Source: Chitinophagaceae bacterium (lineage in GTDB: Bacteria > Bacteroidota > Bacteroidia > Chitinophagales > Chitinophagaceae). From it: DNA of 64,000 nucleotides. Location of the stretch: contig VFKL01000106.1 in NCBI GenBank assembly GCA_009885535.1, positions 83 to 64,082 of the forward strand, given 5' to 3'. Each line of letters starts with the position of its first letter. Positions within the stretch are counted from its first letter, which is position 1. Position numbers and translations under genes: made by a program. A model generated the notes under the pieces. The model did no database searches. It was not told the origin of the DNA and saw nothing but the letters and a program-made list of their open reading frames with translations. This document shows, in pieces, positions 32,393 through 63,656 of the stretch.

Positions 32393-32611
32393 ATGAAAAA
32401 TATGAAAATTAAATTAAGAACAGCATTTGTTGGAGTTGCTTTACTTGTGTTAACTATTGGTTTTAATTTCAATTCAATAGCTCAAGATCCGCCACCACCA
32501 GATGGCTGCATAGATCCATTAGATCCTGCTTGTCCTATAGACGGAGGTTTAGTTTTTCTAATAGCAGCAGGTGTTGGAATTGCTGCAAAAAATGCCAGAA
32601 GAAAAAATTAA
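32393..32611 (+). CDS. 72-aa mini-protein: signal peptide plus a PEP-CTERM-like tripartite sorting signal (PIDGG, TM helix, basic tail)
   Basis: Sequence MKNMKIKLRTAFVGVALLVLTIGFNFNSIAQ / DPPPPDGCIDPLDPAC / PIDGG-LVFLIAAGVGIAA-KNARRKN. The gene starts 30 nt after the giant gene's stop with no terminator between them. A strong terminator follows it. Confidence 0.6.
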   Translation: MKNMKIKLRTAFVGVALLVLTIGFNFNSIAQDPPPPDGCIDPLDPACPIDGGLVFLIAAGVGIAAKNARRKN

Positions 32612-32636
32612 GTAATTTCTAAAATAAGATTTAAAT

Positions 32637-32667
32637 AAAAGACATGGAGAAATTCATGTCTTTTTTT
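32637..32667 (+). terminator. Rho-independent terminator after the giant-gene/mini-gene pair
   Basis: The 10-bp stem aaaagacatg (32637-32646) / catgtctttt (32655-32664) encloses the loop gagaaatt and runs into a T-tract. Confidence 0.65.
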
Positions 32668-32738
32668 ATGAATTTAAAATCAAAAAATAATTGATCGTTT
32701 TTTATAAAACATTAAAAACATTTGTTTCAATACCTATA

Positions 32739-32806
32739 AACCGTTGAAACGGTTATGAAACAAACGATTTCCATAACCCACGTTTTAAACCGTGGGTTAT
32801 GGAAAT
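32739..32806. repeat. hairpin pair related to the 17.4-17.7 kb palindromic element
   Basis: A small hairpin, aaccgtt..aacggtt, lies at 32739-32754. A perfect 16-bp stem, atttccataacccacg (32767-32782) / cgtgggttatggaaat (32791-32806), has the loop ttttaaac. It shares the core 'aacccacg(g)ttt(t)aaaccgtggg' with the repeats upstream of the giant gene. Confidence 0.85.
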
Positions 32807-32934
32807 TTAATGGTTTAAACCCTTTATTTATTCATTTCAATTAACATAATCAAATGATTTAAAATTGGCAAAGTAGTTTTTTTTATTGAAATTTGTTTGT
32901 AATTGGCTGCTAATTTTAAGTACCCATAAATATT

Positions 32935-33744
32935 ATGACACAACCCCTTTTTTGTTTAAATTTCTTTTTTAAAAACAAACAGATTTTACTAATAATGTTT
33001 GTATGCTTTTTGATTGCGTTTACTCAATCTTGCACAGCACCAAAGAATACAACTTATTTTAATAAATTGGTAAGAGATACAATCATACAAACCAATTTAA
33101 TTAAATTCCCTGAAGTAATTATACAAAAAAAAGATTTACTAGGAATTTCTGTGAGTAGTTTAAATACTGAACTTGATGAGAAGTTCAATAAAATAGGCAT
33201 GATAAAATCTGATTTTCAATTTGGAGATGGATTTTTAGTAAATGAAAATGGCAGCATAAACATACATTTTTTAGGATTCGTTCAAGTAGAGGGATTAACC
33301 AGAAATCAGCTAAGAGAAAAACTTGAAAAAGAATTAACCCCGTTTCTTAAAGAGCCGATTGTAACCATACAATTTTTAAATAAAAAAGTAACAGTAATGG
33401 GGGAAGTAAAAGTACCTCAAGTGGTGTTTTTAACAGAAGAATACACGCCTTTAATTGATGTATTGGTAAAATGCGGTGATTTGGGAAAAGATGCATTTGT
33501 TAATGACATTATGGTAATTAGAGATTCATCTAATTTCAAACAAATAAAACATTTGAATCTTGAAGATCATAGTATAATTAGTTCTTCATGGTATTATGTA
33601 AAACCCAATGATGTGGTGTATGTTAAATCAGATATCAGTAAAACCTATAAAGAAGAAAGAATGCGATCTCTACAAATTTTGGTTTCTTTAGGTGTTTCTG
33701 TATTTTCATTAATTATTATCATTTTAAATTCCCTAATAAAATAA
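32935..33744 (+). CDS. wza: polysaccharide export outer-membrane protein (Wza-like, Poly_export + SLBB)
   Basis: 269 aa. Candidate lipobox 'LIAFTQSC' and 'GFLVNENGSINIHFLGFVQVEGLTRNQLREKLEKEL'. The start may be the internal Met at 32995. Confidence 0.8.
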   Translation: MTQPLFCLNFFFKNKQILLIMFVCFLIAFTQSCTAPKNTTYFNKLVRDTIIQTNLIKFPEVIIQKKDLLGISVSSLNTELDEKFNKIGMIKSDFQFGDGFLVNENGSINIHFLGFVQVEGLTRNQLREKLEKELTPFLKEPIVTIQFLNKKVTVMGEVKVPQVVFLTEEYTPLIDVLVKCGDLGKDAFVNDIMVIRDSSNFKQIKHLNLEDHSIISSSWYYVKPNDVVYVKSDISKTYKEERMRSLQILVSLGVSVFSLIIIILNSLIK

Positions 33745-33759: not shown

Positions 33760-36192
33760 ATGAGCGAAGAATTTGAAAAAATACAGAAGAATAATGATGG
33801 GATTTTAACGCAAATTGTTTTTCGTTATTTACCTTTTTGGCCAGTTTTTGTTTTAATAGCTGCCGCAACTTTACTTATATCAATAGTGTCGCTTCGCTCT
33901 CAAACAAAAATCTATGTAGCCTCCTCTAAAGTTTTATTAAAAGATCCTCAAAAAGGTGGAGGTGATTCTAAAGTTTTAGAAGCTTTAAATATTTTCAGCG
34001 AAAAGAAAATTGTTGAAAATGAATTGGTGGTTCTTAAATCTTCTTCCCTAATGGAAGAGGTGGTAAGAGAAATAGATTTATATACATCAGTTTATAACGA
34101 AGGAAGGGTTCAAGTTGAAACTCTTTATGGAGATAATGCACCGCTATATTTCATTGCACAAAATAAAGATAGTATTGAATCTTCTGGGAAGTATTTTTTT
34201 CAAATAAATTGGAAAAAAAGTACCATAAACATTGATGGTAGAAATGTCTCTTTTAATGAGGATATTAAAATTGGAAAAACTCAATATAAAATTGTACCAA
34301 ACTTAAATTACAATAAAGACCTTTCTGGAAAAAATTATTTTGTTGTTTTTAATTCTATAAAATCTACGGCTTCAGGAATTATCGGTTCTATAAAAGCTGC
34401 TCCAATTAGCTATGCTTCTACGGTTATTGATGTTAAAATGGAAACACCAATTCCTCAAAAAGGGATTGATATTTTAAACAAGCTTTTTGAAGTGTACAAT
34501 AAAGCAGGGATTGATGATAAAAATCTAATTGCAACTAAGACTTTAAATTTTATTGAGGATCGATTAAACACAGTAATTAATCAGCTGGATAGCGTTGAGA
34601 AAAATATAGAACAATTTAAAACAAAAGAAGGCGGATTAGAATTGGGCACTCAAGCAACCACTTTTTTTGAAACAGTAAAAGAATTAGATAAGGCAAATAG
34701 CACATTGGATTTGCAATTGCAACTTTTAAAAGAAGTATCTAACTATATTAGTAGCAAAGGGAAAAAAACAGGAACCGTTCCATCGCTTATTTTACTAAAT
34801 GACGAAACACTGAGGGGATTATTGAATCAATTATATTCTGCCGAATTTGAATTGGATCAAGCAAATGCAACATCAGGAAAACAAAGTAATGTTGTATTAT
34901 TAGCAGTAGAAAAAATAGAAAAATTAAAAGGAAGCATTAGAGAAAGTATTGGAAATTTACAAAGCAACTTACTTACACAAAAGCGGATTAATGAACAGAA
35001 TATTGCAATGAACAAGCAATTGTACACTTCTGTTCCTCAAAAGGAACGAACACTTTTGGAAATTAGCCGACAACAAGCCATTAAAAATAATATTTACACA
35101 TACCTACTTCAAAAACGAGAAGAAACCGCTTTATCTTCAGCCTCAACAAGTGCTGATTTGAGGGTTTTAGAAAGAGGTTCTTTTAGTGGACCAATAAGCC
35201 CAATCGCAAGTACATATTATTGGGCTGGTTTTTTAATTGGGTTGATTATTTTTATTCTGTATGTTCAACTCTACGAACAATTGAACAATCGGATTATGTT
35301 TCGAGCTGAAATTGAAAAGAGAACAAACGTGCCCGTAATTGGAGAAATCGTACAATCAAAAAATAGAGAGACCATTGCCATTACTGAAGGAGTTAGGACT
35401 GTTATTGCAGAGCAGTTTAGGGCTCTAAGAACCAATCTTAACTTCATGGGTTATAATGAAAAAAACAATGTGTTGTTGGTTACTTCAAGTATTTCTGGAG
35501 AAGGGAAGAGTTTTGTTTCTTTGAACTTAGCCATTAGTTTAACATTAACCGGAAAAAAAGTGGCATTGCTAGAAATGGATTTAAGAAAACCCAAATTGAG
35601 CAAATTACTCGGAATGAAAAGGGATATTGGAATCTCTAGTCACCTAGTTAATAAATCAACTATTGAAGAAATTATAAAACCAACACAGTTTAATAATTTA
35701 TTTTTATTAGGAGCAGGCCCCATTCCCCCCAATCCTACAGAGTTAATTAGTAAGCCGGAATTCAAACAAATGATTGATACCCTCAAAGAAAAGTTTGATT
35801 ATGTAATCATTGATACAGCACCAGTAGGGCCAGTTACAGATGCCCAACTTTTGTCAGATTATGCAAACCTTACTTTGTTTATTATACGTCACAAACATAC
35901 ACCCGCTGTTTTTGTAAAAATGATTGAAGGATTTAATGCGGAGAAGAAATTCAATAACATGTGTATTGCCTTTAATGGTATTAAACCAAGAGGTGTATCA
36001 TTATTTAATTACGGTTTTGGAGGTTATGGTAACGGATATGGTTATGGGTATGGTTACGGGTATGGTTACGGGTATGGTTATGCGTATGGTAAAGCTGATA
36101 CAAGCTATTATTTAAATGACGATAATACACCTGGGTTTAAAAATATAAATGATATCAGCAAATTTCTCTTGAATTTATTCAAAAGAAAATAG
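33760..36192 (+). CDS. wzc: Wzc-type chain-length determinant / BY tyrosine kinase with a Gly-Tyr repeat tail
   Basis: 810 aa. An N-terminal Wzz-like domain has two TM helices and a coiled-coil periplasmic region. The P-loop is 'TSSISGEGKSF' and the Walker B-like motif is 'VIIDTAPVG'. The C-terminus reads 'YGNGYGYGYGYGYGYGYGYAYGKADTSYY'. Confidence 0.85.
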   Translation: MSEEFEKIQKNNDGILTQIVFRYLPFWPVFVLIAAATLLISIVSLRSQTKIYVASSKVLLKDPQKGGGDSKVLEALNIFSEKKIVENELVVLKSSSLMEEVVREIDLYTSVYNEGRVQVETLYGDNAPLYFIAQNKDSIESSGKYFFQINWKKSTINIDGRNVSFNEDIKIGKTQYKIVPNLNYNKDLSGKNYFVVFNSIKSTASGIIGSIKAAPISYASTVIDVKMETPIPQKGIDILNKLFEVYNKAGIDDKNLIATKTLNFIEDRLNTVINQLDSVEKNIEQFKTKEGGLELGTQATTFFETVKELDKANSTLDLQLQLLKEVSNYISSKGKKTGTVPSLILLNDETLRGLLNQLYSAEFELDQANATSGKQSNVVLLAVEKIEKLKGSIRESIGNLQSNLLTQKRINEQNIAMNKQLYTSVPQKERTLLEISRQQAIKNNIYTYLLQKREETALSSASTSADLRVLERGSFSGPISPIASTYYWAGFLIGLIIFILYVQLYEQLNNRIMFRAEIEKRTNVPVIGEIVQSKNRETIAITEGVRTVIAEQFRALRTNLNFMGYNEKNNVLLVTSSISGEGKSFVSLNLAISLTLTGKKVALLEMDLRKPKLSKLLGMKRDIGISSHLVNKSTIEEIIKPTQFNNLFLLGAGPIPPNPTELISKPEFKQMIDTLKEKFDYVIIDTAPVGPVTDAQLLSDYANLTLFIIRHKHTPAVFVKMIEGFNAEKKFNNMCIAFNGIKPRGVSLFNYGFGGYGNGYGYGYGYGYGYGYGYAYGKADTSYYLNDDNTPGFKNINDISKFLLNLFKRK

Positions 36193-36259: not shown

Positions 36260-36766
36260 TTGTCTTATATACAAGAAAATATCAATTGGTACGTTGTGTA
36301 CACGCGCCCAAGATGGGAAAAAAAAATAGCCACTTTACTAGATAATCGTGGCATTGAAAATTATTTACCCTTGAACAAAGTGGTTAAACAATGGAGTGAT
36401 AGAAAAAAAATAGTTCAAGAGCCTTTATTTAAAGGATATTTATTTATTAAAATTGCAGAGAAAGAAAAATGGGACGTAAAGTTAGTTGATGGTATTTTGA
36501 ATTATGTACATTGGTTAGGTAAACCTGCAGTTGTTAAGGAATCCGATATTAAAAATATCAAAAAATTTTTACAAGAGTTTGACAATGTCCAGGTGGTTGA
36601 CAAATCACTCCAAAAAGGAGATGAAGTTATTGTTCAACAAGGAATAATGATGAATTACAAGGGAATAGTGTTAGAAGTGTTGCATAATAAAGCCATAGTA
36701 AATATTGACAGTATGGGCATTAAATTAAATGCAACATTTGATATAAATAAATTAGAAACGGTTTAA
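36260..36766 (+). CDS. UpxY-family transcription antiterminator (NusG paralog)
   Basis: 168 aa. NGN-like 'NWYVVYTRPRWEKKIATLL...ENYLPL' and KOW-like 'GDEVIVQQGIMMNYKGIVLEV'. The apparent start is TTG. Confidence 0.8.
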   Translation: MSYIQENINWYVVYTRPRWEKKIATLLDNRGIENYLPLNKVVKQWSDRKKIVQEPLFKGYLFIKIAEKEKWDVKLVDGILNYVHWLGKPAVVKESDIKNIKKFLQEFDNVQVVDKSLQKGDEVIVQQGIMMNYKGIVLEVLHNKAIVNIDSMGIKLNATFDINKLETV

Positions 36767-36822: not shown

Positions 36823-37791
36823 ATGAATCTATCAGATAAAATATATGTAGCAGGTCACAACGGCTTAGTAGGGAATTCAATTTTTAAATTCCTTCAAAAT
36901 GAAGGATTTATAAATATTATTACAAAAAGTTCCAAAGAACTAGACCTAAGAAATAAAGCTTTAGTGGATGAATTTTTTAGAATTGAAAAACCCCAGTTTG
37001 TATTTTTAGCTGCTGCAAAAGTTGGTGGAATTCATGCAAATAATACTTTCCCTGCAGATTTTTACTACGACAATATTTGCATTCAAAATAATGTAATTCA
37101 TGCAGCCTATGTCAATAAAGTTGAAAAACTATTATTTTTAGGAAGCAGTTGTATTTATCCCAAAAATTCACCACAACCCATTTGTGAATCCTATTTATTA
37201 AATGGATATTTAGAACCTACAAATGAAGCTTATGCCATTGCAAAATTAGCAGGAATAAAAATGTGTCAAGCTTATCGTCAGCAATATGGATGCAATTTCA
37301 TCAGTGTTATGCCCCCTAATTTATATGGGCCTGGAGATAATTATGATTTAGATAACGCTCATGTTTTACCCGCTTTATTGAGAAAGTTTCATGAGGCAAA
37401 AATAAATAATTCAGAAACCGTTACCGTTTGGGGATCGGGCACGCCCAAAAGAGAATTTTTATTTGTAGAAGATATGGCATTGGCTTGTTATTTTTTAATG
37501 GAAAATTATAATTCGAATGCCATCATAAATGTTGGTACAGGCATAGATCATACCATTTTACAACTGGCAGAAATTGCAAAAAAAGTTACCGGGTTTACTG
37601 GTCAAATTATTTTAGATGCCAATAAGCCAGATGGTACTCCACGCAAACTACTTATGGTAGATAAAATAAATGCTTTAGGTTGGTTTGCTAAAATGGATTT
37701 GGAAACGGGATTATCCAAAACGTATGAAGATTTTAAAACGAATTACGAATATTATATTTCAAAGAAACAATTTTCATCTCAAGGCGCATAA
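36823..37791 (+). CDS. fcl: GDP-L-fucose synthase
   Basis: 322 aa. 'IYVAGHNGLVGNSI', 'AAAKVGGIHANNTFPADFYYDN', 'LGSSCIYPK' and 'YAIAKLAG'. Confidence 0.85.
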   Translation: MNLSDKIYVAGHNGLVGNSIFKFLQNEGFINIITKSSKELDLRNKALVDEFFRIEKPQFVFLAAAKVGGIHANNTFPADFYYDNICIQNNVIHAAYVNKVEKLLFLGSSCIYPKNSPQPICESYLLNGYLEPTNEAYAIAKLAGIKMCQAYRQQYGCNFISVMPPNLYGPGDNYDLDNAHVLPALLRKFHEAKINNSETVTVWGSGTPKREFLFVEDMALACYFLMENYNSNAIINVGTGIDHTILQLAEIAKKVTGFTGQIILDANKPDGTPRKLLMVDKINALGWFAKMDLETGLSKTYEDFKTNYEYYISKKQFSSQGA

Positions 37792-39585
37792 ATGTGTAGA
37801 ATAGCCGGTATCGTTAATTTCAATTGGAGTTCTGAAAAGAATCAGCAAACAGTTGAAAATATGTGCAACTTTCTAAAGCATGGTGGCCCAGATGATGGTG
37901 GCATTTTCACCTCAGAAAGTGGTAATTTGGTTTTAGGCAACAGAAGATTGGCTTTAGTTGATTTATCTCAAGCAGGTCATCAACCCATGCATTATCAAAA
38001 TCAGTTTACCATTACGTATAATGGAGAATTGTATAATTATCTTGAATTAAAAAATCAACTGATTCAATTAGGACATCAGTTTTCAAATCATACCGATACA
38101 GAAGTTATACTTGCTGCATTTGCAGAATGGAATGTGCATGCTTTTGAAAAATTTAATGGCATGTATGCATTTGCGTTATATGACCAATCAAACGAGATGC
38201 TTTATGTGGTACGTGATGTGGTAGGTATAAAACCACTATATTATTCAGTTGATGATAATCAACTCGTTTTTGCTTCTGAAGTAAATGCGTTTAATGCGGT
38301 AGATTTTAATTGGACGAAAAACGAACATTGGCCTGTTTTTTTAATGGCTTATGGACATATCCCAGAACCATACACCACATTTAAAGAAGTTTCCACATTA
38401 CATAAAGGGAGTTTTATAAAGTATGATTTAAAGCATAGAAAACATTCGATACAATCTTATTCCTTTTATAGTTTTAGTCAAGATTTAAATGTTGGTGATA
38501 ATTTAAAAAGCACAATAAGAAATCAAATAGAAAATGGAGTAAAATCTCAACTTGTAGCAGATGCTCCAGTTGGTGTTTTTTTAAGTGGCGGAATTGATTC
38601 AAGCATCTTGGCATTAATTGCGGATCAACATAAAAAAGAAGGCATTCAATCATTATCCATCTACTTTAACGAAAACGAATATTCTGAAAAGAAATATCAG
38701 GATATTGTGATGTCGAAATTGAAAGGCGAAAAGCATCAGTTTTTATTATCAAAAAATGATTTTGAAAATCATCTTCCTCAAGTTTTACAATCTATGGATT
38801 TGCCAAGTTGTGATGGCATAAATACTTGGTTTATTAGCAAACATGCCAAAGCACTTGGATTGAAAGCCGTTTTATCTGGCATTGGTGCGGATGAATTATT
38901 TGGCGGTTATCCTTCTTTTCAGCGAATGAGTTTGGCGCGTAAATTATCTTTGACACCCAATTTTCTGCTAAATATTTTTAAGAAAAATACCAAAAAGCCA
39001 TTTAATAGAATTTCTTATTTAGGAATGGATGGGATAAAAGGAATGTATCTTTTTATGCGCGGGCATTACAACGTTCATGAAATTGCCAACTATTTAGAAG
39101 CTGAAGAACGTGAAATTTGGAACATCATTAATGATAATCCAATGATGGGAGATATAAAACAAATGCCCACTCAAAATCAAGCGAGTTGGATGGAGTTTAA
39201 CATGTACATGCAAAACCAGCTTTTGAAAGATGCTGACGTGATGAGTATGGCACATGGCGTTGAAATCAGGGTGCCGTTTTTAGATCAAGCGCTTGTAAAA
39301 ACAATGTTTAGTATAAACGCAAATGATAAGTTTTCAGGTAAGTTGCCCAAGCAATTGCTAATAGATTCATGTAAAGATATTTTGCCAGAACAAGTTTGGA
39401 ATCGACCAAAAATGGGATTCAGTTTTCCTTTCTCAACTTGGATGAAAAACAATAGTTATTTAGAGGACTTGATGCAATACAGCAATAAAAATACAAAGGC
39501 GTATTATAACGATTTCAAACAAGGAACTTTACATTGGTCTCAAATGATGTCGTTGATGATTATGAAAACGAGGAATGAAGCATAA
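37792..39585 (+). CDS. asparagine synthase-family glutamine amidotransferase, paralog 1
   Basis: 597 aa. Ntn nucleophile 'MCRIAGI', 'YNGELYNY' and PP-loop 'FLSGGIDSS'. The ATG abuts the fcl stop. Confidence 0.85.
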   Translation: MCRIAGIVNFNWSSEKNQQTVENMCNFLKHGGPDDGGIFTSESGNLVLGNRRLALVDLSQAGHQPMHYQNQFTITYNGELYNYLELKNQLIQLGHQFSNHTDTEVILAAFAEWNVHAFEKFNGMYAFALYDQSNEMLYVVRDVVGIKPLYYSVDDNQLVFASEVNAFNAVDFNWTKNEHWPVFLMAYGHIPEPYTTFKEVSTLHKGSFIKYDLKHRKHSIQSYSFYSFSQDLNVGDNLKSTIRNQIENGVKSQLVADAPVGVFLSGGIDSSILALIADQHKKEGIQSLSIYFNENEYSEKKYQDIVMSKLKGEKHQFLLSKNDFENHLPQVLQSMDLPSCDGINTWFISKHAKALGLKAVLSGIGADELFGGYPSFQRMSLARKLSLTPNFLLNIFKKNTKKPFNRISYLGMDGIKGMYLFMRGHYNVHEIANYLEAEEREIWNIINDNPMMGDIKQMPTQNQASWMEFNMYMQNQLLKDADVMSMAHGVEIRVPFLDQALVKTMFSINANDKFSGKLPKQLLIDSCKDILPEQVWNRPKMGFSFPFSTWMKNNSYLEDLMQYSNKNTKAYYNDFKQGTLHWSQMMSLMIMKTRNEA

Positions 39586-42790: not shown

Positions 42791-43407
42791 AAAATATTTT
42801 AAAAAAGATTATACTACGTATTTTCCAAGTTGGTATGGATGAATACAAAAAAATGGAAACTATTTGTCAAAGAGAACAGTTTTCAGATAATTCAATTTTT
42901 GACAACAGTATCATTACAGGAAAAAATACTAGAATCATCAATAATGCTGGAATAAAAGAACGAATTGTGTTAGAAGGACAATCCATCATTTTAGGCGAAA
43001 TACAAACAATGCAGCATGGAGGAATTATTAAAATAGGGAAACACGTTTTTATTGGAGAAAATACAAGAATTTGGTCATCGGCTTCAATAACAATTGGTGA
43101 TCGCGTATTGATTTCTCACAACGTAAATATTCATGATAATAATTCCCATTTATTAGATAAGCATTTGCGTCATCAAGAATTTAAATACGTTTACGAAACG
43201 CATAAACCTTTTCCACACATTCAACTGCCTGAAAAGGAAATTATAATTGGAGATGACGTTTGGATTGGTTTTAATGCAACAATTTTAAAAGGTGTTACCA
43301 TTGGTAATGGTGCAATTATTGGCGCAAATTCAATCGTAACAAAAGATGTTCCAGCAGGTGCAGTAGTTGTTGGTGCAGATCAAAAAATCATCAAGTTTTT
43401 AGATTAA
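42775..43407 (+). CDS. hexapeptide-repeat (LbH) acyl/acetyltransferase
   Basis: 210 aa. '[43 protein letters not shown]'. The start is uncertain: TTG at 42775 or ATG at 42835. Confidence 0.75.
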
Positions 43408-43459
43408 ATAAATCATTTTTTTTAGTATAATCTATTAAAACATAAAATAAAAAATAATA

Positions 43460-49542: not shown

Positions 49543-49547
49543 ATAAA

Positions 49548-52270: not shown

Positions 52271-52281
52271 TAATTATTGCT

Positions 52282-55670: not shown

Positions 55671-55678
55671 AGAAATTA

Positions 55679-56569
55679 ATGTCTGAAGTTATTTGCAAAT
55701 TGCCTAAAGCCGGATTGGGTAATCAATTGTTTCCATTGATGCACGCTGCAGTATTTGCCAAAATAAATAATTTGCCTTTATTAATAATTGGGTATCATCA
55801 ATTTAAAGTTGGGCCTTATCTAAGAGGCGAAAAATCAAAACGTAAATACACCGGTTTTTTCAAGTTTGAAAAAAATATATTTTTTGCTTTTTATGATGAA
55901 TTGAAAGTGAAAAATATTTTGAAAAATAATGAAGTCGTTTATGAGCCGCAACTTTTAAAACTAACTTCTACTCAAAAAAATAACAAGGTATTTTTTTTTG
56001 AAAAAATGCCAACTTATCATGATTATTTCATTCATCTAAAACCTCATCGTAATCTGGTAATTGAATTAATGAATGAAATGATATCGGAAAAGATTGTCGA
56101 AAAACAAACAACTACTACTCATCAAGAAATAGGCGTACATATTAGGATGGGTGATTTTAGAAAATTAAATGTTGGAGAGGAATTTAAAGGAGGCCATGTT
56201 AGAACACCTGAAAGTTATTTTGTAAATATTATAAATGGAATTAGAATTGTACTTGATCTTGAAATGAAGGTTGATATTTTTACTGATGGGTATAAAAATG
56301 AATTCGAAAGTATTTTTAATTTGAAAAATATTGATTTTGTAGAAGGTAAAAATGATTTATTGGATATGTTATTATTGAGTAAAAGTAAAATCATTGTTAT
56401 TTCAACTGGAAGTACGTTTTCATATTGGGCAGGATTTTTATCAAATGCGCCTATAATCTTGCATCCGGATCATATTCACTCACGTATAAGAGATGTGGAT
56501 GAAAATGGGTTGCATTTTGAGGGCGGTTTTGAACAAGCTGTGAATTGGCTAAAAATAAATAGGATATGA
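55679..56569 (+). CDS. GT11-like alpha-1,2-fucosyltransferase (putative)
   Basis: 296 aa. The N-terminal 'AGLGNQLFPLMHAAVFA' and 'GVHIRMGDF' resemble GT11 motifs I and II. This fits the presence of fcl in the locus. Confidence 0.55.
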   Translation: MSEVICKLPKAGLGNQLFPLMHAAVFAKINNLPLLIIGYHQFKVGPYLRGEKSKRKYTGFFKFEKNIFFAFYDELKVKNILKNNEVVYEPQLLKLTSTQKNNKVFFFEKMPTYHDYFIHLKPHRNLVIELMNEMISEKIVEKQTTTTHQEIGVHIRMGDFRKLNVGEEFKGGHVRTPESYFVNIINGIRIVLDLEMKVDIFTDGYKNEFESIFNLKNIDFVEGKNDLLDMLLLSKSKIIVISTGSTFSYWAGFLSNAPIILHPDHIHSRIRDVDENGLHFEGGFEQAVNWLKINRI

Positions 56570-57303
56570 AAAAAGAAACAATAAACAAAGTGCTTCGTCG
56601 ATTTGGGGTTGAATTACATGGATTAGGATTTATACAATCGCTAAAAAAAGTAGAATTTCAACAAAATGCATTTGATGTTCAAAAAGAATTATTGTTGAGT
56701 ACGCCGAAAGTGATTTTTGACATTGGTGCTAACAGAGGAGATACCGCAATAAAATATTCAATTCTATTTCCTTTAGCATCTATTTATGCTTTTGAACCTT
56801 TTTTAGAAACCTTTCAAAAGCTTAATGATAATGTAAATGAAATGCCTAAAATCAGTACATATCAAATCGCTATTTCTGATAAAAAAGGAGAAACTGTTTT
56901 TTTTAGCAATAAAAATGAAGACACCAATTCTTTATTATCATCTTCAAAAATCGGATTGTCGTCCGACGAACAAGTGAAAACTATAGGGCAAACAAATGTA
57001 AATACAGAAACCATAGATGCATTTTGTTCCGACCATAAAATCGAAGGCATTGATATACTCAAAATGGATATTCAAGGCGCCGAGCTTTTAGCATTAAAAG
57101 GGGCAACTGGTTTACTTTCAGAAAAAAAAATAAAGGCAATATATACAGAAACATATTTTAGAAGACAATATAATAATCAACCATTATTTCATGAAATCTC
57201 AGCATTTCTTGCTCTGTATGGATATTATTTACAAGATATTTATTCGCCCATTTATGGTAACGGGAAAATCGCTTGGTGCGATGCGATTTTTTTACCAGAA
57301 TAA
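56566..57303 (+). CDS. FkbM-family methyltransferase
   Basis: 245 aa. 'VIFDIGANRGDTAI...IYAFEP' and 'IDILKMDIQGAELLALKGA'. It joins the upstream gene through an ATGA overlap. Confidence 0.8.
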   Translation: MKKETINKVLRRFGVELHGLGFIQSLKKVEFQQNAFDVQKELLLSTPKVIFDIGANRGDTAIKYSILFPLASIYAFEPFLETFQKLNDNVNEMPKISTYQIAISDKKGETVFFSNKNEDTNSLLSSSKIGLSSDEQVKTIGQTNVNTETIDAFCSDHKIEGIDILKMDIQGAELLALKGATGLLSEKKIKAIYTETYFRRQYNNQPLFHEISAFLALYGYYLQDIYSPIYGNGKIAWCDAIFLPE

Positions 57304-57323
57304 AATTTAATACTAAGTTTTTA

Positions 57324-58700
57324 ATGACTGATTTATTCAAAAAAGATGTACCAATTGATTGGCGAATTTATTTTGGAATCATAATTTTCACCAAATTGTT
57401 TTTTCCAGATCTCAGCTTATATAGTTTTTTTGCATTAATGATTGCGGCTTATCAATTTATGCTGTTGTTTTACTCCATTGGATTTATTTTGCCGGTTAGA
57501 TATTTAGCTGGTTCTCTAATGTGTGTGCAAATGCTTGTGGGACCAGCGTTTGCATATAATGGATTAGATGAATATCAATTGGGTTTTTTAAAAATGCAAG
57601 TGGAAGAAACAATATATTTCAGCTATGTTATTCCTGCTACAATTATGTTTTTGATAGGATTACGAATAAAATTCAATCAAAATGTTTCAGACGAATTTAT
57701 TAATATCAATCAATTAAAAGCATATGTGAAAAATAATCAACAAACCATGTATACGTTTATTGTAATTGGTTTTATTTCAAGTTTGGTTTCTCCATTTTTT
57801 AGTTCTGAGATAGGATTTGTCTTTACCTTATTAGGTTCATTTAAATTTGTAGGGTTATTTATGATTATTCTAGGGGATAATAAATTAAAACCCATTTCAT
57901 TATTTGTAGTATTGTCATCAATAATTTTAAGTTCTTTAGGTCAAGCCATGTTTCATGACTTGATAATTTGGATGTTATTTATGGGATCTGTATTTTCTAT
58001 AAAATATAAGCCATCTAATTATTTGAAATTTGTGTTAGCCGTTTTTTTTATTGCTATTGCCATTTTTATTCAAATGCTAAAAGGGGATTATCGAGAAGCC
58101 ACTTGGAAAGAAGGGAAGGAAGGGAACGTAACCAATTTTGCTGCAACTACAAAAACGAAAAGTGATCAAAACCAATTATTTACTTTTGAAAAACTTAAAC
58201 AAAGTAACATCAGAATTAATCAAGGATTTATTATTACAAATATCATGAATAATGTTCCCGAAAAAGAAAATTATTCAAATGGAAAAGAGTTAATGCAAAT
58301 ACTTGAAGCTGCTGTATTACCCAGGGTAATTGCGCCCAATAAATTAAATGCTGGTGATCGCTTTTTTTTCATGAAATGGGCAGGATTTCCAATTGCTGCA
58401 GGTACTTCAATGGGTTTGAGTTCTGTTGGAGATGGGTATGTGAATTTTGGTAAATTTGGCGGAATGGTATTTATGTTTTTTTTAGGCCTCTTATTTAGTT
58501 ATGTAGTTTCTATTTTTTATAAACACAGTTTCGTATACCCAATTTTGTACTTATTTCCAACTTTGGTTTTTTATTATCCAATGCGTGCCGACTGTGAACT
58601 TCAAACAATACTAGGCCATCTGGTGAAATCTTGCTTTTTGATATTTGTACTATTAAAAGTTTGGAAAAGTTATTTTGTTTTGAAAACAACATCGAATTGA
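57324..58700 (+). CDS. polytopic Wzy / O-antigen-ligase-like membrane protein
   Basis: It has about 10 hydrophobic helices and a large hydrophilic loop, 'KGDYREATWKEGKEG...RVIAPNKLNAGDRFFF'. It shows no Wzx/MATE-like pattern. The ORF is open from 57273. I chose ATG 57324 ('MTDLFKKD') because it avoids overlap with the upstream gene. Confidence 0.5.
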   Translation: MTDLFKKDVPIDWRIYFGIIIFTKLFFPDLSLYSFFALMIAAYQFMLLFYSIGFILPVRYLAGSLMCVQMLVGPAFAYNGLDEYQLGFLKMQVEETIYFSYVIPATIMFLIGLRIKFNQNVSDEFININQLKAYVKNNQQTMYTFIVIGFISSLVSPFFSSEIGFVFTLLGSFKFVGLFMIILGDNKLKPISLFVVLSSIILSSLGQAMFHDLIIWMLFMGSVFSIKYKPSNYLKFVLAVFFIAIAIFIQMLKGDYREATWKEGKEGNVTNFAATTKTKSDQNQLFTFEKLKQSNIRINQGFIITNIMNNVPEKENYSNGKELMQILEAAVLPRVIAPNKLNAGDRFFFMKWAGFPIAAGTSMGLSSVGDGYVNFGKFGGMVFMFFLGLLFSYVVSIFYKHSFVYPILYLFPTLVFYYPMRADCELQTILGHLVKSCFLIFVLLKVWKSYFVLKTTSN

Positions 58701-59812
58701 CCACCCTCATCTCCATACCTTGGTTTACACCCGCTTATCTTGCTGGAGGTCCTATTCAATCCGTTTTTACCATGGTAAACAATTGCGATGAGTTGGATTT
58801 TAAAATAATTACCAGTAACTCAGATATGAATTATGTGCCATTAAAAAATATCTCGGTGAATGAATGGACTGATTTCAATAACCAAACTAAAGTTTTTTAT
58901 GGAGATAAGCAGTTGTCTTTATTTAAACACATACAATTAATAAAATCTATAAAAGCCAATGCCGTTTTCTTAATTGGCATTTATTCTTTAAGGTTTACCA
59001 TTTTACCAATTTTGTTTTCACGCTCCGCAAACATCATCCTCTCCGCTAGAGGCATGCTTCATCCGCCTGCGCTCCGTCAAAAAGCATTTAAAAAGAAACT
59101 TTATCTTGCTTTTTTAAAACCTATTTTGAAATGGAAAAAAGTTTCATTTCATGCTACCGACGAAATTGAAAAAAAACATATTCTTGCTGTAATGGGAAAC
59201 AAAGCTAAAGTTTGGGTGGCTCAAAATATTCCAAACATTCGAAAATCAAATGTTTTATTTAAGTCAGAAGGCGTTATCAATTTATTAACTGTAGCCCTTA
59301 TTGGCCCGATGAAAAATCATTTGCAAATTTTAAAAGCGTTAAAAGATTGCAAGTATAATATTCAATATGATATTTGCGGCCCTATTTATTTTCCAGATTA
59401 TTGGAATGAATGTTTAGATGTAATTAAACAATTACCATCCAATGTTAAAGTTGTTTATCATGGGCCAATACCTCCAAATGAATTGGATTCTTTTTATACC
59501 AATGCACATGTTTTCATTTGTCCGAGTCAAAGTGAAAACTTTGGTCACGCTTTATTCGAAGGGCTCAGTGCTGGAAAACCACTTATAACCAGCAACAATA
59601 CACCGTGGAACGATTTGAAAAAAAATAATGCAGGATTGAATGTAGATCCAATTGCTGAGCAGTTAAAAGCCGCTATTGATTTTTTTGCAGAAATGAATGA
59701 AACGGAGTATTCAAAATGTAGTGTCGCAGCTAATAAATATGCAACAAACGCAATTGACATAACACAAATTAAAAAATCCTATCATCAAATGTTCCATCAT
59801 AATGAAGGATAA
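58697..59812 (+). CDS. glycosyltransferase family 4
   Basis: 'ISIPWFTPAYLAGGPIQSV' is a GT4 N-terminus, and 'CPSQSENFGHALFEGLSAGKPLITSNNTPW' is also present. The ORF is open from 58631. TTG 58697 overlaps the upstream stop (ATTGA). Start confidence is low. Confidence 0.7.
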   Translation: MTTLISIPWFTPAYLAGGPIQSVFTMVNNCDELDFKIITSNSDMNYVPLKNISVNEWTDFNNQTKVFYGDKQLSLFKHIQLIKSIKANAVFLIGIYSLRFTILPILFSRSANIILSARGMLHPPALRQKAFKKKLYLAFLKPILKWKKVSFHATDEIEKKHILAVMGNKAKVWVAQNIPNIRKSNVLFKSEGVINLLTVALIGPMKNHLQILKALKDCKYNIQYDICGPIYFPDYWNECLDVIKQLPSNVKVVYHGPIPPNELDSFYTNAHVFICPSQSENFGHALFEGLSAGKPLITSNNTPWNDLKKNNAGLNVDPIAEQLKAAIDFFAEMNETEYSKCSVAANKYATNAIDITQIKKSYHQMFHHNEG

Positions 59813-60392
59813 TCTTTTATTTAAAAATTCAGATTTTAAGCAATTTATCATTAAGTTTTTTGCTGTGTTTGCTTTTCTGTATTTTGGAACATACTTCTGG
59901 ATTGGCTTTGTTGCGCCTGGTGGATATTATAGTGAGTTTGCTGCAAAATATTTAGATTATGTAAGCGCTATTAAAACATCACTTTTGATTGGAACCAAAA
60001 CATTGCTTTCATTTTTTGATATTCAAACTGCTCAATTCAATAATCATGTTATTCGATTTGTAAATGGAAAAGGCGTTCGAATTGCCTATGATTGTGTTGG
60101 TTATGGGGTATATAGTTTTTGGATTGCTTTTGTTGTTGCCAATAAATCGTCATTTACTCGAAAACTAGTTTGGACAATAATCGGATTGTTTTTGCTTTGG
60201 AGCGTAAATGTTATCAGAATAAGTCTCTTTTTAGTTTCCGTAAATAAAAATTGGGAAATGCCTTTAGGTATCAATCATCATGATTGGTTTACAATTGTTG
60301 CTTATCTAGTTATTTTTTTAATGATATTTGCATTCGATAAAAACAATAACAATCAAAAAAGAAATAAATCAGTTTACGAAAACCCTATTTAA
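59802..60392 (+). CDS. exosortase-family protein (short, XrtF-like)
   Basis: 196 aa and polytopic. 'RIAYDCVGYG' (Cys98, nt 60093-60095), 'SVNVIRISLFL' (Arg139) and 'GINHHDWF' (His159/160) occur in the order and approximate spacing of the exosortase/archaeosortase catalytic Cys-Arg-His. It overlaps the upstream GT4 gene by 11 nt. Confidence 0.6.
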   Translation: MKDNLLFKNSDFKQFIIKFFAVFAFLYFGTYFWIGFVAPGGYYSEFAAKYLDYVSAIKTSLLIGTKTLLSFFDIQTAQFNNHVIRFVNGKGVRIAYDCVGYGVYSFWIAFVVANKSSFTRKLVWTIIGLFLLWSVNVIRISLFLVSVNKNWEMPLGINHHDWFTIVAYLVIFLMIFAFDKNNNNQKRNKSVYENPI

Positions 60393-60413
60393 AATTAAAT
60401 CGTTTCTCATTAA

Positions 60414-62141
60414 ATGAATATTATAGGAATAAACGCTTTTCACGCCGATGCATCTGCAGCCATTTTTGTAAATGGAAAAATGATTGCAGCAATTGAAGAA
60501 GAACGTTTTAGAAGAGTAAAACATTGGGCAGGATTTCCAGAATTAGCGATTAAATTTTGCTTAAATGAAGCTGGGATTGGCATTGAAGAAGTTGATTATT
60601 TTGCTATTGGTAGAAATACAAACGTAAAACTATTTAAGAAATTAATTTACGTAGCTAAAAATCCTTTTGGAAATTTTAGCGCCATTAAAGAAAGATTCAT
60701 CAATCGTAAAAAAGTATCTTCCATTGAAGAACAATTGGCTCAAGCATTTGGCATGTCGGCTTCTGATTTTTCTGGCAAAGTAATTAATGTTGAACATCAT
60801 AGAAGTCATTTGGCCTCTGCTTTTTTTCCTTCACCTTTTAAAGAAGCCGCTTGTTTATCCATTGATGGCTCTGGTGATTTTTCTACCGCCATGACTGCCA
60901 TTGGAAAAGGCAATAAAATTGAAGTCCTTCAATCTATTGATTTCCCACATTCTATTGGGTTGTGTTATACCGCATTTACCCAACTACTTGGATTTCCACA
61001 TTATGGCGATGAATACAAAGTAATGGGCATGGCGCCTTATGGATCACCAACATTTATGGACAAGTTACATGATGTGGTGAAACTTACCGATGATGGTTTA
61101 TTCAAATTGAATTTAAAATATTTCAGAAGCGCAACCTCTGGTATTATTGATTATGGGGAAGATTTCATTCCCGTTGTAGCGCCAATGTTCAGTGATTACA
61201 TGATTGAAAAGTTTGGACAACCACGCAAAAAAGATGAGCCATTAACTCAAGCACATAAAGATCTAGCAGCATCTGTTCAAAGAATGACGGAACAGGTTCT
61301 TTTTCACATGCTCAATCATCTACATAAAAAAACCGGATTAGAGAGTGTATGCATTGCCGGTGGTGTGGCGCAAAATAGTGTAGCCAATGGTAAGATTACC
61401 AGAAACACGCCATTTAAAAATGTATATATTCCTTCTGCAGGTCATGATGCGGGAATATCAATGGGCGCAGGGATGTACACGCATCATCAACATTTAAATT
61501 TACCTAGAATTGAACCTATTTTTTCTGCATACACAGGAAGCCATTTTTCAAATTCAGAAATAAAAGAAATTTTAATCGCAAAGAATATCAATTTCAATTT
61601 TGTTGAAGATGTTGATTTGTATGATCAGGTTTCGGATTGTATGATAAATGGTGGGGTAGTAGGATGGATGAGTGGACGTGCAGAATTTGGCCCTCGTGCT
61701 TTAGGTGGGAGGTCAATTTTAGCCGATCCAAGAAGACAAGACGCCAAAGAATTGTTGAATTCGAAAATTAAAAGAAGAGAAAGCTTCAGACCATTTGCAC
61801 CATCAATTTTAAAAGAATATGTTTCCGAGTTTTTTGAATTGGATGAACCCGTGCCATTTATGGAAAAAGTGTTTCCAATTAAAAAAGATAAACAGCATTT
61901 AATTCCTGCAGTTACCCATGTTGATGGCACTGGAAGATTACAGACTGTAGACAAATTAATCGCCCCAAGATATTATCAATTGATAGACACATTCAGAAAG
62001 AAAACGGGTATTCCGATTTTGTTAAATACGTCATTCAACGAAAACGAACCAATAGTCAATACACCCGAAGAAGCCCTAAATTGTTTTTTAAGAACCAATA
62101 TGGATATGCTTGTTCTTGAAAATTATATCATCACAAAATAA
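60414..62141 (+). CDS. carbamoyltransferase (NodU/CmcH family)
   Basis: 575 aa. 'IIGINAFHADASAAIFVNGKMIAAIEEERFRRVKHWAGFP' and 'GPRALGGRSILADP'. Confidence 0.85.
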   Translation: MNIIGINAFHADASAAIFVNGKMIAAIEEERFRRVKHWAGFPELAIKFCLNEAGIGIEEVDYFAIGRNTNVKLFKKLIYVAKNPFGNFSAIKERFINRKKVSSIEEQLAQAFGMSASDFSGKVINVEHHRSHLASAFFPSPFKEAACLSIDGSGDFSTAMTAIGKGNKIEVLQSIDFPHSIGLCYTAFTQLLGFPHYGDEYKVMGMAPYGSPTFMDKLHDVVKLTDDGLFKLNLKYFRSATSGIIDYGEDFIPVVAPMFSDYMIEKFGQPRKKDEPLTQAHKDLAASVQRMTEQVLFHMLNHLHKKTGLESVCIAGGVAQNSVANGKITRNTPFKNVYIPSAGHDAGISMGAGMYTHHQHLNLPRIEPIFSAYTGSHFSNSEIKEILIAKNINFNFVEDVDLYDQVSDCMINGGVVGWMSGRAEFGPRALGGRSILADPRRQDAKELLNSKIKRRESFRPFAPSILKEYVSEFFELDEPVPFMEKVFPIKKDKQHLIPAVTHVDGTGRLQTVDKLIAPRYYQLIDTFRKKTGIPILLNTSFNENEPIVNTPEEALNCFLRTNMDMLVLENYIITK

Positions 62142-62160
62142 AGCAGTTTATCATTAAGAA

Positions 62161-62910
62161 ATGAAAATTACCATTATAACGGTTACGTATAACTGCGAAA
62201 AATATTTGGAACAATGTATTCAATCTGTACTCAATCAAAGCTATAAAAATGTTGAATATATAATTGTAGATGGCGGATCTAACGAACACACAATCAATAT
62301 TATAAAGAAATACGAAAATCGAATTTCAAAATGGATTTCTGAGCCAGATAATGGTATGTTTGATGCTTTAAACAAAGGAATGAAAATGGCAAAAGGCGAT
62401 GTGGTTGGTGTGTTGCATAGCGACGATGTTTTTGCCTCGGATGATGTATTGGAAACGATAGCCAATACGTTTCAAACCAAAAATGTTGATACGCTTTATG
62501 GTGATTTAAATTATGTTTACGAAGACGATATTTTTAAAATTTTCAGAAAGTGGGAAAGTAAACCATTTGATAGAAATTTATTTAAAACAGGTTGGATGCC
62601 CGCACATCCTGCATTTTATTTCAAAAGAACATTACTTGAAAAATATGGTGATTATAAGATTGAATTTTATTCAGCGTCGGATTATGAATTCATGGCGAGG
62701 TATTTATATAAACACAACTTAAGTACCATTTATCTTCCTAAGCTGATTATTAGAATGCGTAAGGGAGGTTTGAGTAATAATAATTTCTTAAAGAGAATAG
62801 AAGCAAACCGAAATGATTATAAAGCGATGAAAGCAAATGGAATACCGTTTCCATTATTTGTTTCTATATTAAAACCTTTGAGTAAATTACACCAATACTA
62901 TAAAAAATAA
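62161..62910 (+). CDS. glycosyltransferase family 2
   Basis: 249 aa. 'ITIITVTYNCEKYLEQCIQSVLNQSY...IVDGGSNE' and 'HSDD'. Confidence 0.8.
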   Translation: MKITIITVTYNCEKYLEQCIQSVLNQSYKNVEYIIVDGGSNEHTINIIKKYENRISKWISEPDNGMFDALNKGMKMAKGDVVGVLHSDDVFASDDVLETIANTFQTKNVDTLYGDLNYVYEDDIFKIFRKWESKPFDRNLFKTGWMPAHPAFYFKRTLLEKYGDYKIEFYSASDYEFMARYLYKHNLSTIYLPKLIIRMRKGGLSNNNFLKRIEANRNDYKAMKANGIPFPLFVSILKPLSKLHQYYKK

Positions 62911-62918
62911 TTTTTAAG

Positions 62919-63656
62919 ATGTTCAGTTTTTTCAAGAAAAAAGAAGTGGTAGATATTAAGTTTTTTCCGATTAAAACGGATATGCATTCTCATATTCTTC
63001 CAGGAATTGATGATGGATCGCCTAATTTGGAAACTTCTATTTTTTTGATAAAAGGATTGATGGAAATGGGAGTGACAAAATCAATAGCCACACCTCATGT
63101 TATCAGCGATTTGTATAGAAATACACCAACTACAATTAATGCAGCTTTAAATAGTTTGAAAAAAGAATTGAAAAATCAATCCATCAATTTTGAAGTTCAT
63201 GCAGCAGCGGAATATATGTTGGATAGTTATTTTTTAGAGATTTTAAATAAAGAAGAGAAATTACTCACGATAAAAGACAATATTATTTTAACGGAGTTCT
63301 CTTATGCATCAATGCCAAATGAACCAGAGCAATATTCTTTTGAAATTCAAAATGTAGGCTATTCGCCGATTTTAGCGCATCCAGAAAGGTATCCATATTA
63401 CCACAACAATTACAAAATGTATCATCGCTTTATTGATTTGGGCTTTATGTTGCAAATCAATCTGCTTTCTCTAACTGGATATTATGGTAAAGAAGCCGCA
63501 AAAGCTGCAGAATATATGATAAAGAATGGTATGGTTTCTTTTGTTGGGACGGATTTGCACCACGAAAGGCATTTGAATATGCTTCAAGATTCACGAAATC
63601 AAAAGTTATTTAAATCGTTTCTTGAGCACCAAACTTGGAATGATTTTCTGGAATAA
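62919..63656 (+). CDS. cpsB: CpsB/CapC-type PHP-domain protein-tyrosine phosphatase
   Basis: 245 aa. 'TDMHSHILPGIDDGS', 'IATPH' and 'AHPERY'. It is the expected partner of the Wzc BY-kinase. Confidence 0.85.
   Translation: MFSFFKKKEVVDIKFFPIKTDMHSHILPGIDDGSPNLETSIFLIKGLMEMGVTKSIATPHVISDLYRNTPTTINAALNSLKKELKNQSINFEVHAAAEYMLDSYFLEILNKEEKLLTIKDNIILTEFSYASMPNEPEQYSFEIQNVGYSPILAHPERYPYYHNNYKMYHRFIDLGFMLQINLLSLTGYYGKEAAKAAEYMIKNGMVSFVGTDLHHERHLNMLQDSRNQKLFKSFLEHQTWNDFLE

Follow-up and report, generated by a model that had tools for sequence, protein, structure and literature searches.

A short exosortase of an unnamed clade and a predicted PID-CTERM substrate in a surface-polysaccharide locus of a Chitinophagaceae bacterium

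What does a short exosortase cut, and to what is the product joined, when its gene lies inside a polysaccharide locus? This question is raised by contig VFKL01000106.1 of a Chitinophagaceae bacterium, of which a stretch of 64,000 nucleotides, here called the window, was analyzed. Positions 32393 to 63656 of the window hold 28 genes, all on the same strand. Among them are an exosortase gene and, at the 5' edge, the gene of a mini-protein with a candidate sorting signal; a giant gene for type IX secretion (T9SS) cargo lies just upstream (18185-32362). To our knowledge, the target to which exosortases attach their substrates is still unknown twenty years after these enzymes were predicted. An original prediction, made from the DNA alone, had likened the locus to the PEP-CTERM/EpsH systems of Proteobacteria and proposed a convergent or distantly related system that had not been characterized. 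The reading that we favor, with moderate confidence, is that the 32393-63656 region and the giant gene together form a locus for the synthesis and export of a surface polysaccharide, which holds a PID-CTERM/exosortase sorting system whose peptide product would be passed to an acceptor.

The exosortase and its predicted substrate

Gene families were assigned by scanning the proteins of the window against Pfam and NCBIfam models with curated bit-score cut-offs. The features at the center of the argument are listed here, with the open reading frame of the mini-protein called the mini-ORF.

18185-32362, + strand: cell-surface protein of 4,725 residues with Ig-like and CUB domains (Pfam Ig_7, CUB) and a T9SS type A C-terminal sorting domain (TIGR04183)
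32393-32611, + strand: PID-CTERM mini-protein of 72 residues, predicted dedicated exosortase substrate (NF046080, 30.8 bits against a cut-off of 26)
32638-32671, + strand: intrinsic-terminator-like hairpin and T-run 3' of the mini-ORF (AAAGACATGGAGAAATTCATGTCTTT then TTTTATGA, -11.7 kcal/mol)
58631-59812, + strand: GT4 glycosyltransferase overlapping the exosortase gene (best match, the XrtY-associated glycosyltransferase XYAG1)
59802-60392, + strand: short exosortase of 196 residues, sister clade of XrtY (TIGR04178, 34.5 bits against a cut-off of 23)

Whether the 59802-60392 gene encodes an exosortase had been set in advance as a test that could refute the original prediction. Its product scored above the cut-off of the exosortase/archaeosortase signature TIGR04178, which was matched by all 15 aligned relatives; this aligned sample consisted of the window exosortase and 14 relatives out of more than 400 homolog clusters. 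The best specific match was XrtY (NF046083; 108.5 bits against a cut-off of 160), followed by XrtX (NF046081; 59.6 bits against 170), while XrtF and XrtH were weaker. The XrtY cut-off was missed by all 15 clade members, down to 49% identity, and the best relative reached an E-value of 3.9e-37 against the XrtY model, or about 128 bits as estimated from that E-value. Membership in XrtY or XrtX was ruled out by these curated cut-offs. The homologs, which are all 180-217 residues long, are annotated only as "exosortase/archaeosortase family protein" since the clade falls below the XrtY cut-off.

C98 (in DCVGYG), R139 (NVIRI) and H159-H160 (DHHxWF) were invariant in the 15 sequences down to 49% identity. 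We take these residues to be the proposed active site, by their role in the family, and judged by them the exosortase appears catalytically intact. Its AlphaFold2 model (predicted local distance difference test score, pLDDT, 83) is helical, with long helices at residues 10-37, 53-71, 101-113, 118-149 and 159-193, and the model and the hydropathy profile indicate a polytopic membrane protein. A fold search with this model found no solved structure resembling it. The matches to the XrtY, XrtX, XrtF and XrtH models and the retained Cys, Arg and His speak for homology, and the convergence entertained in the original prediction was ruled out by the shared superfamily signature and catalytic residues. 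As judged by sequence, the product of 59802-60392 is a genuine exosortase of an unnamed clade beside XrtY, which makes it a new subfamily within a class already known to databases.

NCBIfam models this class as PID_CTERM (NF046080), XrtX (NF046081), an XrtX-associated membrane protein (NF046082), XrtY (NF046083) and an XrtY-associated glycosyltransferase (NF046085), and Pfam has a PID_CTERM model, PF28310. The window was compared with the PID-CTERM, XrtX and XrtY families by their models, scores and names. The mini-protein passes the PID-CTERM model, the exosortase best matches XrtY and then XrtX, and the overlapping GT4 best matches XYAG1 (NF046085; 73 bits, below the cut-off of 400), whereas the window exosortase clade scores below the XrtY cut-off. 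Searching the literature for PID-CTERM, XrtX and XrtY gave results only where these strings had been used in unrelated senses, and no paper on these families. The system can therefore still be called uncharacterized in terms of publications and experiments, but not in terms of databases, where its class is already modeled.

A cognate tripartite C-terminal sorting signal was found in the same genome, on the PID-CTERM mini-protein encoded 27.4 kb upstream of the exosortase on the same strand. The candidate sorting-signal protein of the original prediction was thus borne out, with the PID_CTERM match covering residues 48-71 of 72. The mini-protein consists of a signal peptide (ending in NSIA before a Gln), a mature segment of about 17 residues (QDPPPPDGCIDPLDPAC) that is short and rich in Pro, Asp and Cys, the motif PIDGG, a membrane helix and an RRKN tail. 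Its 152 homolog clusters contain proteins of 47-99 residues, all flagged as PF28310 PID_CTERM. A profile search of 1.84 billion representatives at 50% identity returned 1,444 PID-CTERM clusters at E ≤0.001, and the best 150 of these were all 52-117 residues long. In the family alignment, the signal peptide ends in Ala before Gln; about 13-20 residues come next, then an invariant DPLDPACPIDGG, then the helix LSLLIAAGIGIGA, which is strongly conserved, and last a tail rich in Lys. Of 242 sequences, 174 have two cysteines no more than 12 residues from PID. When 33 distinct DNA versions of the mini-ORF taken from other loci are compared, all synonymous codons are in use for the invariant residues, which marks the mini-ORF as translated and under protein-level selection.

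The 64-kb window contains one PID tail, and a look at the 10 kb around the exosortase in 80 related loci found none. PID-CTERM proteins appear to be nearly cargo-less mini-proteins with an invariant DPLDPACPIDGG core, a feature described here as new. The mini-protein is predicted to be a dedicated, essentially cargo-less substrate and not one among many sorted proteins. In Bacteroidota, Gln after the signal peptide and its conversion to pyroglutamate are known as the Q-rule (PMC5837995, PMC10653852). The Gln that follows the signal peptide of the mini-protein fits this rule and, therefore, a pyroglutamate N-terminus is likely.

Link to a giant T9SS gene

The original prediction had drawn the boundary of the locus at the mini-ORF, which is better placed as the last gene of the upstream operon for giant T9SS cargo. 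The product of the giant gene is a T9SS type A cargo by its score with TIGR04183 over the last 220 residues (34.3 bits against a cut-off of 23), and the mini-ORF starts 30 nucleotides past the end of the giant open reading frame. In about 30 of 36 evaluable loci, the gap between the end of a T9SS-tailed gene and the mini-ORF that follows is 2-72 nucleotides; three more loci have a gap of 148-218 nucleotides. On the other side, a strong hairpin and T-run lie 3' of the mini-ORF stop in 32 of 37 distinct loci, with a sequence that differs each time; in most loci the hairpin begins 17-27 nucleotides downstream of the stop. The hairpins were found by a custom fold-based scan across loci and had been missed by the terminator rule of a sigma-70 promoter scan, a method unsuited to Bacteroidota, whose promoter matches were no better than shuffled controls. 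Adjacency to the giant gene and the terminator together place the mini-ORF at the end of the giant gene's transcription unit, with wza beginning a new one. The link to the giant gene is the most conserved linkage of the mini-ORF. By gene order, PID-CTERM genes seem almost always to follow a giant T9SS cargo gene and to precede a terminator, which is also new here.

Two compact metagenomic loci bear on this link. In the first (L123, 2016-6483), a giant gene, a mini-ORF and an exosortase gene (XrtY-like, 134 bits) are directly adjacent. In the second (L120, 4470-10216), the order is XrtX, membrane protein, giant gene and mini-ORF, and the cluster adjoins a divergent wzc-wzm-wzt group. The L120 exosortase is a bona fide XrtX (183.1 bits against 170), its membrane protein is weakly XrtX-associated, and, as in the window, a T9SS giant gene is paired with a PID mini-ORF. 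Four loci of one lineage (L115-L118) have the mini-ORF before wza and no T9SS-tailed gene upstream, the upstream genes of L115 being divergent. The link between giant gene and mini-ORF is frequent, not obligatory.

Two further observations concern the flanks of the giant gene. A sensor histidine kinase of 1,247 residues (sCache, HisKA and HATPase domains; 13531-17274) is encoded directly upstream on the same strand. A palindrome of about 36 nucleotides, TTCC(T/A)TAACCCACG(G/T)TTTAAACCGTGGG...GAAA, occurs at 17413-17448, 17572-17607 and 32769-32804; the first two copies lie upstream of the giant gene within a 159-nucleotide tandem duplication (17410-17706) and the third lies upstream of wza. 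Its half-sites gave six matches against 1.0 expected by chance. A search of 124 related loci did not find the palindrome. It could be an operator shared by the two operons or an element that resembles a repetitive extragenic palindrome and is specific to the lineage.

The polysaccharide locus and its conservation

Downstream of the terminator, the remaining genes follow in this order, with the overlapping GT4 and the exosortase standing between the 475-residue membrane protein and the carbamoyltransferase.

32935-33744, + strand: Wza-like outer-membrane polysaccharide export lipoprotein (Poly_export 53 bits, SLBB_2 29.8 bits, lipoprotein-type N-terminus)
33760-36192, + strand: Wzc-type co-polymerase/tyrosine autokinase (TIGR01007, 155.3 bits against a cut-off of 108)
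36260-36766, + strand: UpxY-family (NusG-like) transcription antiterminator (NF033644, 137.5 bits against 100)
36823-37791, + strand: GDP-L-fucose synthase-like epimerase/reductase (NF047922, 468.7 bits, below the cut-off of 500)
37792-39585, + strand: AsnB-family glutamine amidotransferase 1 (TIGR01536, 422 bits against 267)
39575-40687, + strand: GT4 glycosyltransferase (many sub-threshold GT4 family matches)
40691-41533, + strand: Wzm permease of an ABC-type glycan exporter (ABC2_membrane, 80 bits)
41546-42790, + strand: Wzt ATPase of the ABC-type glycan exporter (Wzt/RfbE-like, 204 bits; TagH-like)
42775-50402, + strand: sugar-modification and transferase block from family scans, in order a hexapeptide acetyltransferase, GT4, NDP-sugar epimerase/dehydratase, GT4, GT2, WecD-like acyltransferase, WecE-type aminotransferase and GT2
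50447-52270, + strand: AsnB-family glutamine amidotransferase 2 (TIGR01536, 392.8 bits against 267)
52282-57303, + strand: variable block from family scans, in order a two-domain glycosyltransferase of 737 residues, GT4, GT11-like transferase and FkbM methyltransferase
57273-58700, + strand (likely true start 57321): polytopic membrane protein of 475 residues, distantly like Wzy, the repeat-unit polymerase
60414-62141, + strand: NodU/CmcH-type carbamoyltransferase (Carbam_trans_N 218 bits, Carbam_trans_C 234 bits)
62161-62910, + strand: GT2 glycosyltransferase (WcaE-like, 78.9 bits)
62919-63656, + strand: CpsB/CapC-type PHP tyrosine phosphatase, the final gene of the locus (PF19567, 151.9 bits)

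Much of the parts list in the original prediction was confirmed. All open reading frames of at least 100 residues between 32935 and 63656 are on the + strand, and many neighbors overlap by 4-20 nucleotides (for example, stop and next start at 39585/39575, 44677/44674, 54495/54489, 56569/56566 and 59812/59802); the gene after CpsB is on the opposite strand. The predicted exporter, kinase and phosphatase were found as a Poly_export/SLBB exporter, a bacterial tyrosine kinase with a GEGKS Walker A motif and a C-terminal Tyr cluster (YGYGYGYGY), and a PHP phosphatase, which together make up a Wza/Wzc/CpsB module for export and its control. The two AsnB-family amidotransferases both pass TIGR01536; they are 30% identical, both begin Met-Cys, and of the 15 loci whose flank is long enough, 12 have the first at the equivalent position. 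The estimate of about ten glycosyltransferases agrees with the family scans, which counted ten (starts at 39575, 43460, 45555, 46791, 49548, 52282, 54489, 55679, 58631 and 62161).

Several components had been absent from that list: Wzm/Wzt, UpxY, the GDP-fucose synthase, the WecE/WecD-type proteins, the FkbM methyltransferase and the NodU-type carbamoyltransferase. The Wzm permease and Wzt ATPase mark an ABC-transporter-dependent glycan pathway, and Wzt orthologs in related loci bear Wzt_C. The WecE-type 4-aminotransferase scored 546.5 bits against the NF008687 cut-off of 375. In the locus (32935-63656), Wza, Wzc and a Wzy-like protein are encoded alongside the Wzm/Wzt ABC exporter, and the assembly route of the glycan may be hybrid or reliant on genes elsewhere. 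In Bacteroides capsule loci UpxY is the first gene; here it sits after wza and wzc (36260-36766), a position kept in related loci. An Rfam scan of the whole 64-kb window gave zero matches.

The membrane protein encoded two genes upstream of the exosortase had been described as Wzy- or O-antigen-ligase-like, and of these two labels only the first found support. It has about ten hydrophobic segments and itself had zero Pfam or NCBIfam matches. Its orthologs gave weak matches to PF14296 (O-ag_pol_Wzy) in 8 of 19 cases, with a best E-value of 2.4e-5, and to the repeat-unit polymerase model TIGR04370 in 3 of 30. No ligase model of Pfam or NCBIfam was matched by any of the 19 or 30 orthologs. A sequence profile search of the PDB found nothing, and neither did a fold search of the PDB with the AlphaFold2 model (pLDDT 79) at E ≤0.001. 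"Wzy-like" seems a fair description by homology, and the ligase label is unsupported.

Conservation of the neighborhood, which the original prediction also depended on, was examined by scanning one genome per species for relatives of the exosortase. Relatives were found in 213 species genomes. The 80 loci retrieved come from Chitinophagaceae (Ferruginibacter, Ginsengibacter, Hanamia and Niastella), other Chitinophagales, or less finely named Bacteroidota or bacterial metagenome-assembled genomes. Each count below is the number of loci with the neighbor over the number with enough flank.

XYAG1-like GT4, upstream of the exosortase: 52/53 loci
475-residue membrane protein, upstream of the exosortase (within 3.2 kb): 40/53 loci
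Carbamoyltransferase, or a hexapeptide acetyltransferase in its place, downstream of the exosortase: 48/55 loci
GT2, downstream of the exosortase: 51/55 loci
CpsB, downstream of the exosortase: 51/55 loci

The neighborhood is therefore conserved, with a core of Wzy-like protein, GT4, exosortase, carbamoyl- or acetyltransferase, GT2 and CpsB. Around homologs of the mini-protein, the order is almost always mini-protein, Wza, Wzc, UpxY, (fucose synthase), AsnB, GT4, Wzm and Wzt, so a mini-ORF with the sorting tail is found again at the 5' end of related loci. The original prediction thus came through each of the three checks that could have refuted it, namely the identity of the exosortase, the conservation of its neighborhood and the presence of the mini-ORF in related loci. 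In every contig that spans both genes, the window and four relatives, the mini-ORF and the exosortase are on the same strand and about 27-40 kb apart.

Window: mini-ORF to exosortase, 27.4 kb
CAVZYY010000001.1: mini-ORF to exosortase, 39.8 kb
JBBJMM010000023.1: mini-ORF to exosortase, about 27 kb
k141_57363: mini-ORF to exosortase, 27.3 kb
CANFUJ010000002.1: mini-ORF to exosortase, 33.7 kb

The stretch between the two conserved ends varies. The block of glycosyltransferase, GT11 and FkbM genes at 46791-57303 differs from those of three loci (L001, L002 and L004) whose exosortases are 81-90% identical to that of the window, and the 5' block (wza to wzt) and 3' block (Wzy-like gene to cpsB) are conserved around it. 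By its gene content, this middle block resembles a serotype cassette.

The resemblance to known systems was then weighed. In the XrtA/PEP-CTERM/EpsH systems of Proteobacteria, too, the exosortase lies among exopolysaccharide genes, in the company of GT4s, a chain-length determinant/kinase and an exporter; AsnB-type amidotransferases are nearby, and the C-terminal signal is tripartite, made up of motif, helix and basic tail (PMC1569441). The claim that the accessory genes of the window are PEP-CTERM hallmarks did not survive, since none reached an XrtA-specific model: the amidotransferases scored 342 (AsnB 1) and 326.6 (AsnB 2) against a cut-off of 817 for TIGR03108, the exporter 57 bits against 180 (TIGR03027), the kinase 126 against 231 (TIGR03018), the chain-length determinant 49 against 279 (TIGR03007) and the GT4s at most 69 against 409 (TIGR03088/TIGR04063). 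No XrtA/EpsH or PEP-CTERM model was among the matches at E ≤0.01 for the exosortase or the mini-protein. The systems also differ in the motif (PID here, PEP there), in the number of substrates (apparently one tiny substrate here, dozens of proteins there) and in the coupling of the window system to a T9SS cargo gene. XrtA is larger, with roughly 300-500 residues compared to 196 for the window exosortase. The likeness to proteobacterial PEP-CTERM loci is, on these scores, one of generic polysaccharide-locus parts and a homologous enzyme.

The only Bacteroidota exosortase with experimental data found in the literature searched was XrtF of Flavobacterium johnsoniae, where deleting xrtF or its partner gene lowers surface colonization and biofilm and where no sorting signal or substrate has been recognized (PMC10936215). 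XrtF (TIGR04128) is also a short exosortase, but the window protein scored 30 bits against its cut-off of 90, and the neighborhood of XrtF consists of a partner membrane protein instead of a polysaccharide locus. Archaeosortase A of Haloferax, which acts on PGF-CTERM, shares the superfamily signature and the signal architecture and sets the precedent for a cleavage step after which the product is bound covalently to a membrane lipid. Unlike the window system, it is archaeal, has large S-layer glycoprotein substrates and works without polysaccharide export machinery.

A further comparison comes from Porphyromonas, where PorU attaches T9SS cargo to anionic lipopolysaccharide (A-LPS) via a Wbp/Vim linking sugar that is amino-acid-modified (Veith et al. 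2020, PMC7468200). An AsnB-like gene, PGN_1234, adjoins the vim genes, and the authors note a parallel with PEP-CTERM loci (PMC7468200). This system also belongs to Bacteroidota and also joins a secreted protein to a glycan by a sortase-like step, but it has no exosortase or mini-protein, and the link between T9SS cargo and exosortase in the window is one of gene order only, compared to the anchoring by PorU and A-LPS. The N-terminal amine of the mini-protein peptide was considered as a PorU acceptor and disfavored, since the mature N-terminus is Gln, with pyroglutamate likely, and there is no Lys.

Proposed mechanism and rival explanations

In the sorting system that we propose, the ten or so glycosyltransferases and the modifying enzymes (fucose synthase, WecE/WecD-type proteins, two AsnB amidotransferases, acetyltransferase, methyltransferase and carbamoyltransferase) could build a glycan containing fucose and amino sugars. 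By their sequences, Wzm/Wzt, the Wzy-like protein, Wza, Wzc and CpsB provide its export and the control of export by tyrosine phosphorylation. The mini-protein would be exported by Sec, and signal peptidase would remove the signal peptide, exposing a Gln that would probably be cyclized to pyroglutamate. Held in the inner membrane by its C-terminal helix and basic tail, the protein would be cut by the exosortase cysteine at or near PIDGG, and an acidic peptide of about 17-20 residues with two cysteines would be passed to the acceptor. In the exosortase model, as PMC7468200 gives it, citing Haft 2006 (PMC1569441), the protein is cleaved near the motif and then joined to a compound that has not been identified. 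Our best guess for the acceptor is the glycan of the locus or its lipid carrier because the exosortase lies just downstream of a glycosyltransferase inside the locus in nearly every case (52/53 loci). The outcome would be a peptide-capped surface polymer that acts together with the giant adhesin.

Several points weigh against this proposal. For cleavage, the cleavage site and the acceptor alike, the argument is an analogy to sortases, to archaeosortase A and to the PEP-CTERM model, and the literature searched held no experiment on any PID-CTERM, XrtX or XrtY system. The mature peptide is without Ser, Thr, Asn and Lys in most family members and thus has no canonical glycosylation site, and pyroglutamate at the N-terminus together with the lack of Lys would leave no free amine. 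The count of a single substrate spans the 64-kb window and the 10-kb exosortase flanks in 80 loci, not whole genomes. Family scans detected no Wzx flippase and no initiating phosphoglycosyltransferase among the 28 genes, which leaves the glycan pathway incompletely defined; the assignment of the Wzy-like protein is weak. Also, the conserved terminator splits the mini-ORF from wza and leaves it in the operon of the giant gene, and there are no polysaccharide genes on the 8.7-kb contig of L123. The terminator, the shared operon and L123 suggest that the primary partner of the system may be the T9SS protein, not the polysaccharide.

The main rival explanation takes up this last point. The exosortase and mini-protein would serve the giant T9SS protein, with the peptide attached to the adhesin or linking it to the surface, and the polysaccharide genes would be mere neighbors. 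This would imply the cooperation of an inner-membrane exosortase with an outer-membrane T9SS, and we consider it unlikely, although much of the gene order speaks for it: the close spacing of T9SS-tailed gene and mini-ORF in about 30 of 36 loci (and the wider spacing in three more), the terminator that follows, and the direct linkage of the three genes in L123 and L120, the former showing no polysaccharide genes. A shared operon would also suggest one-to-one stoichiometry, and the attachment of T9SS cargo to an amino-acid-modified sugar by PorU offers a parallel (PMC7468200). It is the position of the exosortase that fits poorly: in all but one of 53 loci it lies just downstream of a GT4, deep among the polysaccharide genes, with 27-40 kb between it and the giant gene. 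L115-L118 have a mini-ORF before wza with no T9SS gene upstream, and a mature peptide with no Lys and a probably blocked N-terminus has no amine for transpeptidation of the PorU type (PMC5837995). Another possible explanation, speculative and quite unlikely in our judgment, is that the mini-protein is a covalent adaptor, with the clipped peptide joined to the polysaccharide or lipid carrier and then tethering or organizing the giant T9SS adhesin of the same operon. If this were true, exosortase and type IX secretion would be one surface-assembly pathway.

The remaining explanations deny that the mini-protein is a substrate. It could be a small membrane regulator or subunit of the exosortase, of Wzc or of the exporter, with a PID-CTERM-like tail that merely docks in a membrane complex. 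The near absence of cargo, the single copy per locus and a helix (LSLLIAAGIGIGA-KK) conserved far beyond the needs of a generic anchor would all be consistent with such a role, which we nevertheless find very doubtful. Its motif, helix and basic tail are arranged as in a sorting signal, the occurrence of this architecture alongside three exosortase subfamilies is likewise typical of one, and the periplasmic segment is also invariant (DPLDPAC), arguing for a functional product. Lastly, the locus could be a capsule or O-antigen locus of the usual kind, with a mini-ORF and an exosortase-like gene that are no more than inactive relics or chance reading frames; this is extremely improbable. The accessory genes are indeed all generic polysaccharide-locus types and none reaches an XrtA-system-specific model, but the catalytic residues of the exosortase are invariant down to 49% identity, its homologs form more than 400 clusters and occur in 213 species genomes, and the mini-ORF is under protein-level selection and passes a curated cut-off. 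The reading that we prefer remains that of a polysaccharide locus that holds a PID-CTERM/exosortase sorting system.

The cargo-less substrate and the operon link to T9SS go beyond what the original prediction proposed and make the locus worth experiment. Classical exosortase systems have dozens of large substrates, which makes their chemistry hard to trace. An apparently single, invariant peptide of about 20 residues, encoded near its likely partners, could serve as a tractable model in which to look for the exosortase acceptor with mass spectrometry, and the exosortase is carried by cultured organisms: Ferruginibacter sp. HRS2-29, Ginsengibacter hankyongi BR5-29 and Hanamia caeni BO-59. The organisms with this system are common in freshwater, soil and activated-sludge biofilms, and, through the conserved operon shared with a giant T9SS cargo gene, a connection between two surface-sorting systems of Bacteroidota becomes open to test.

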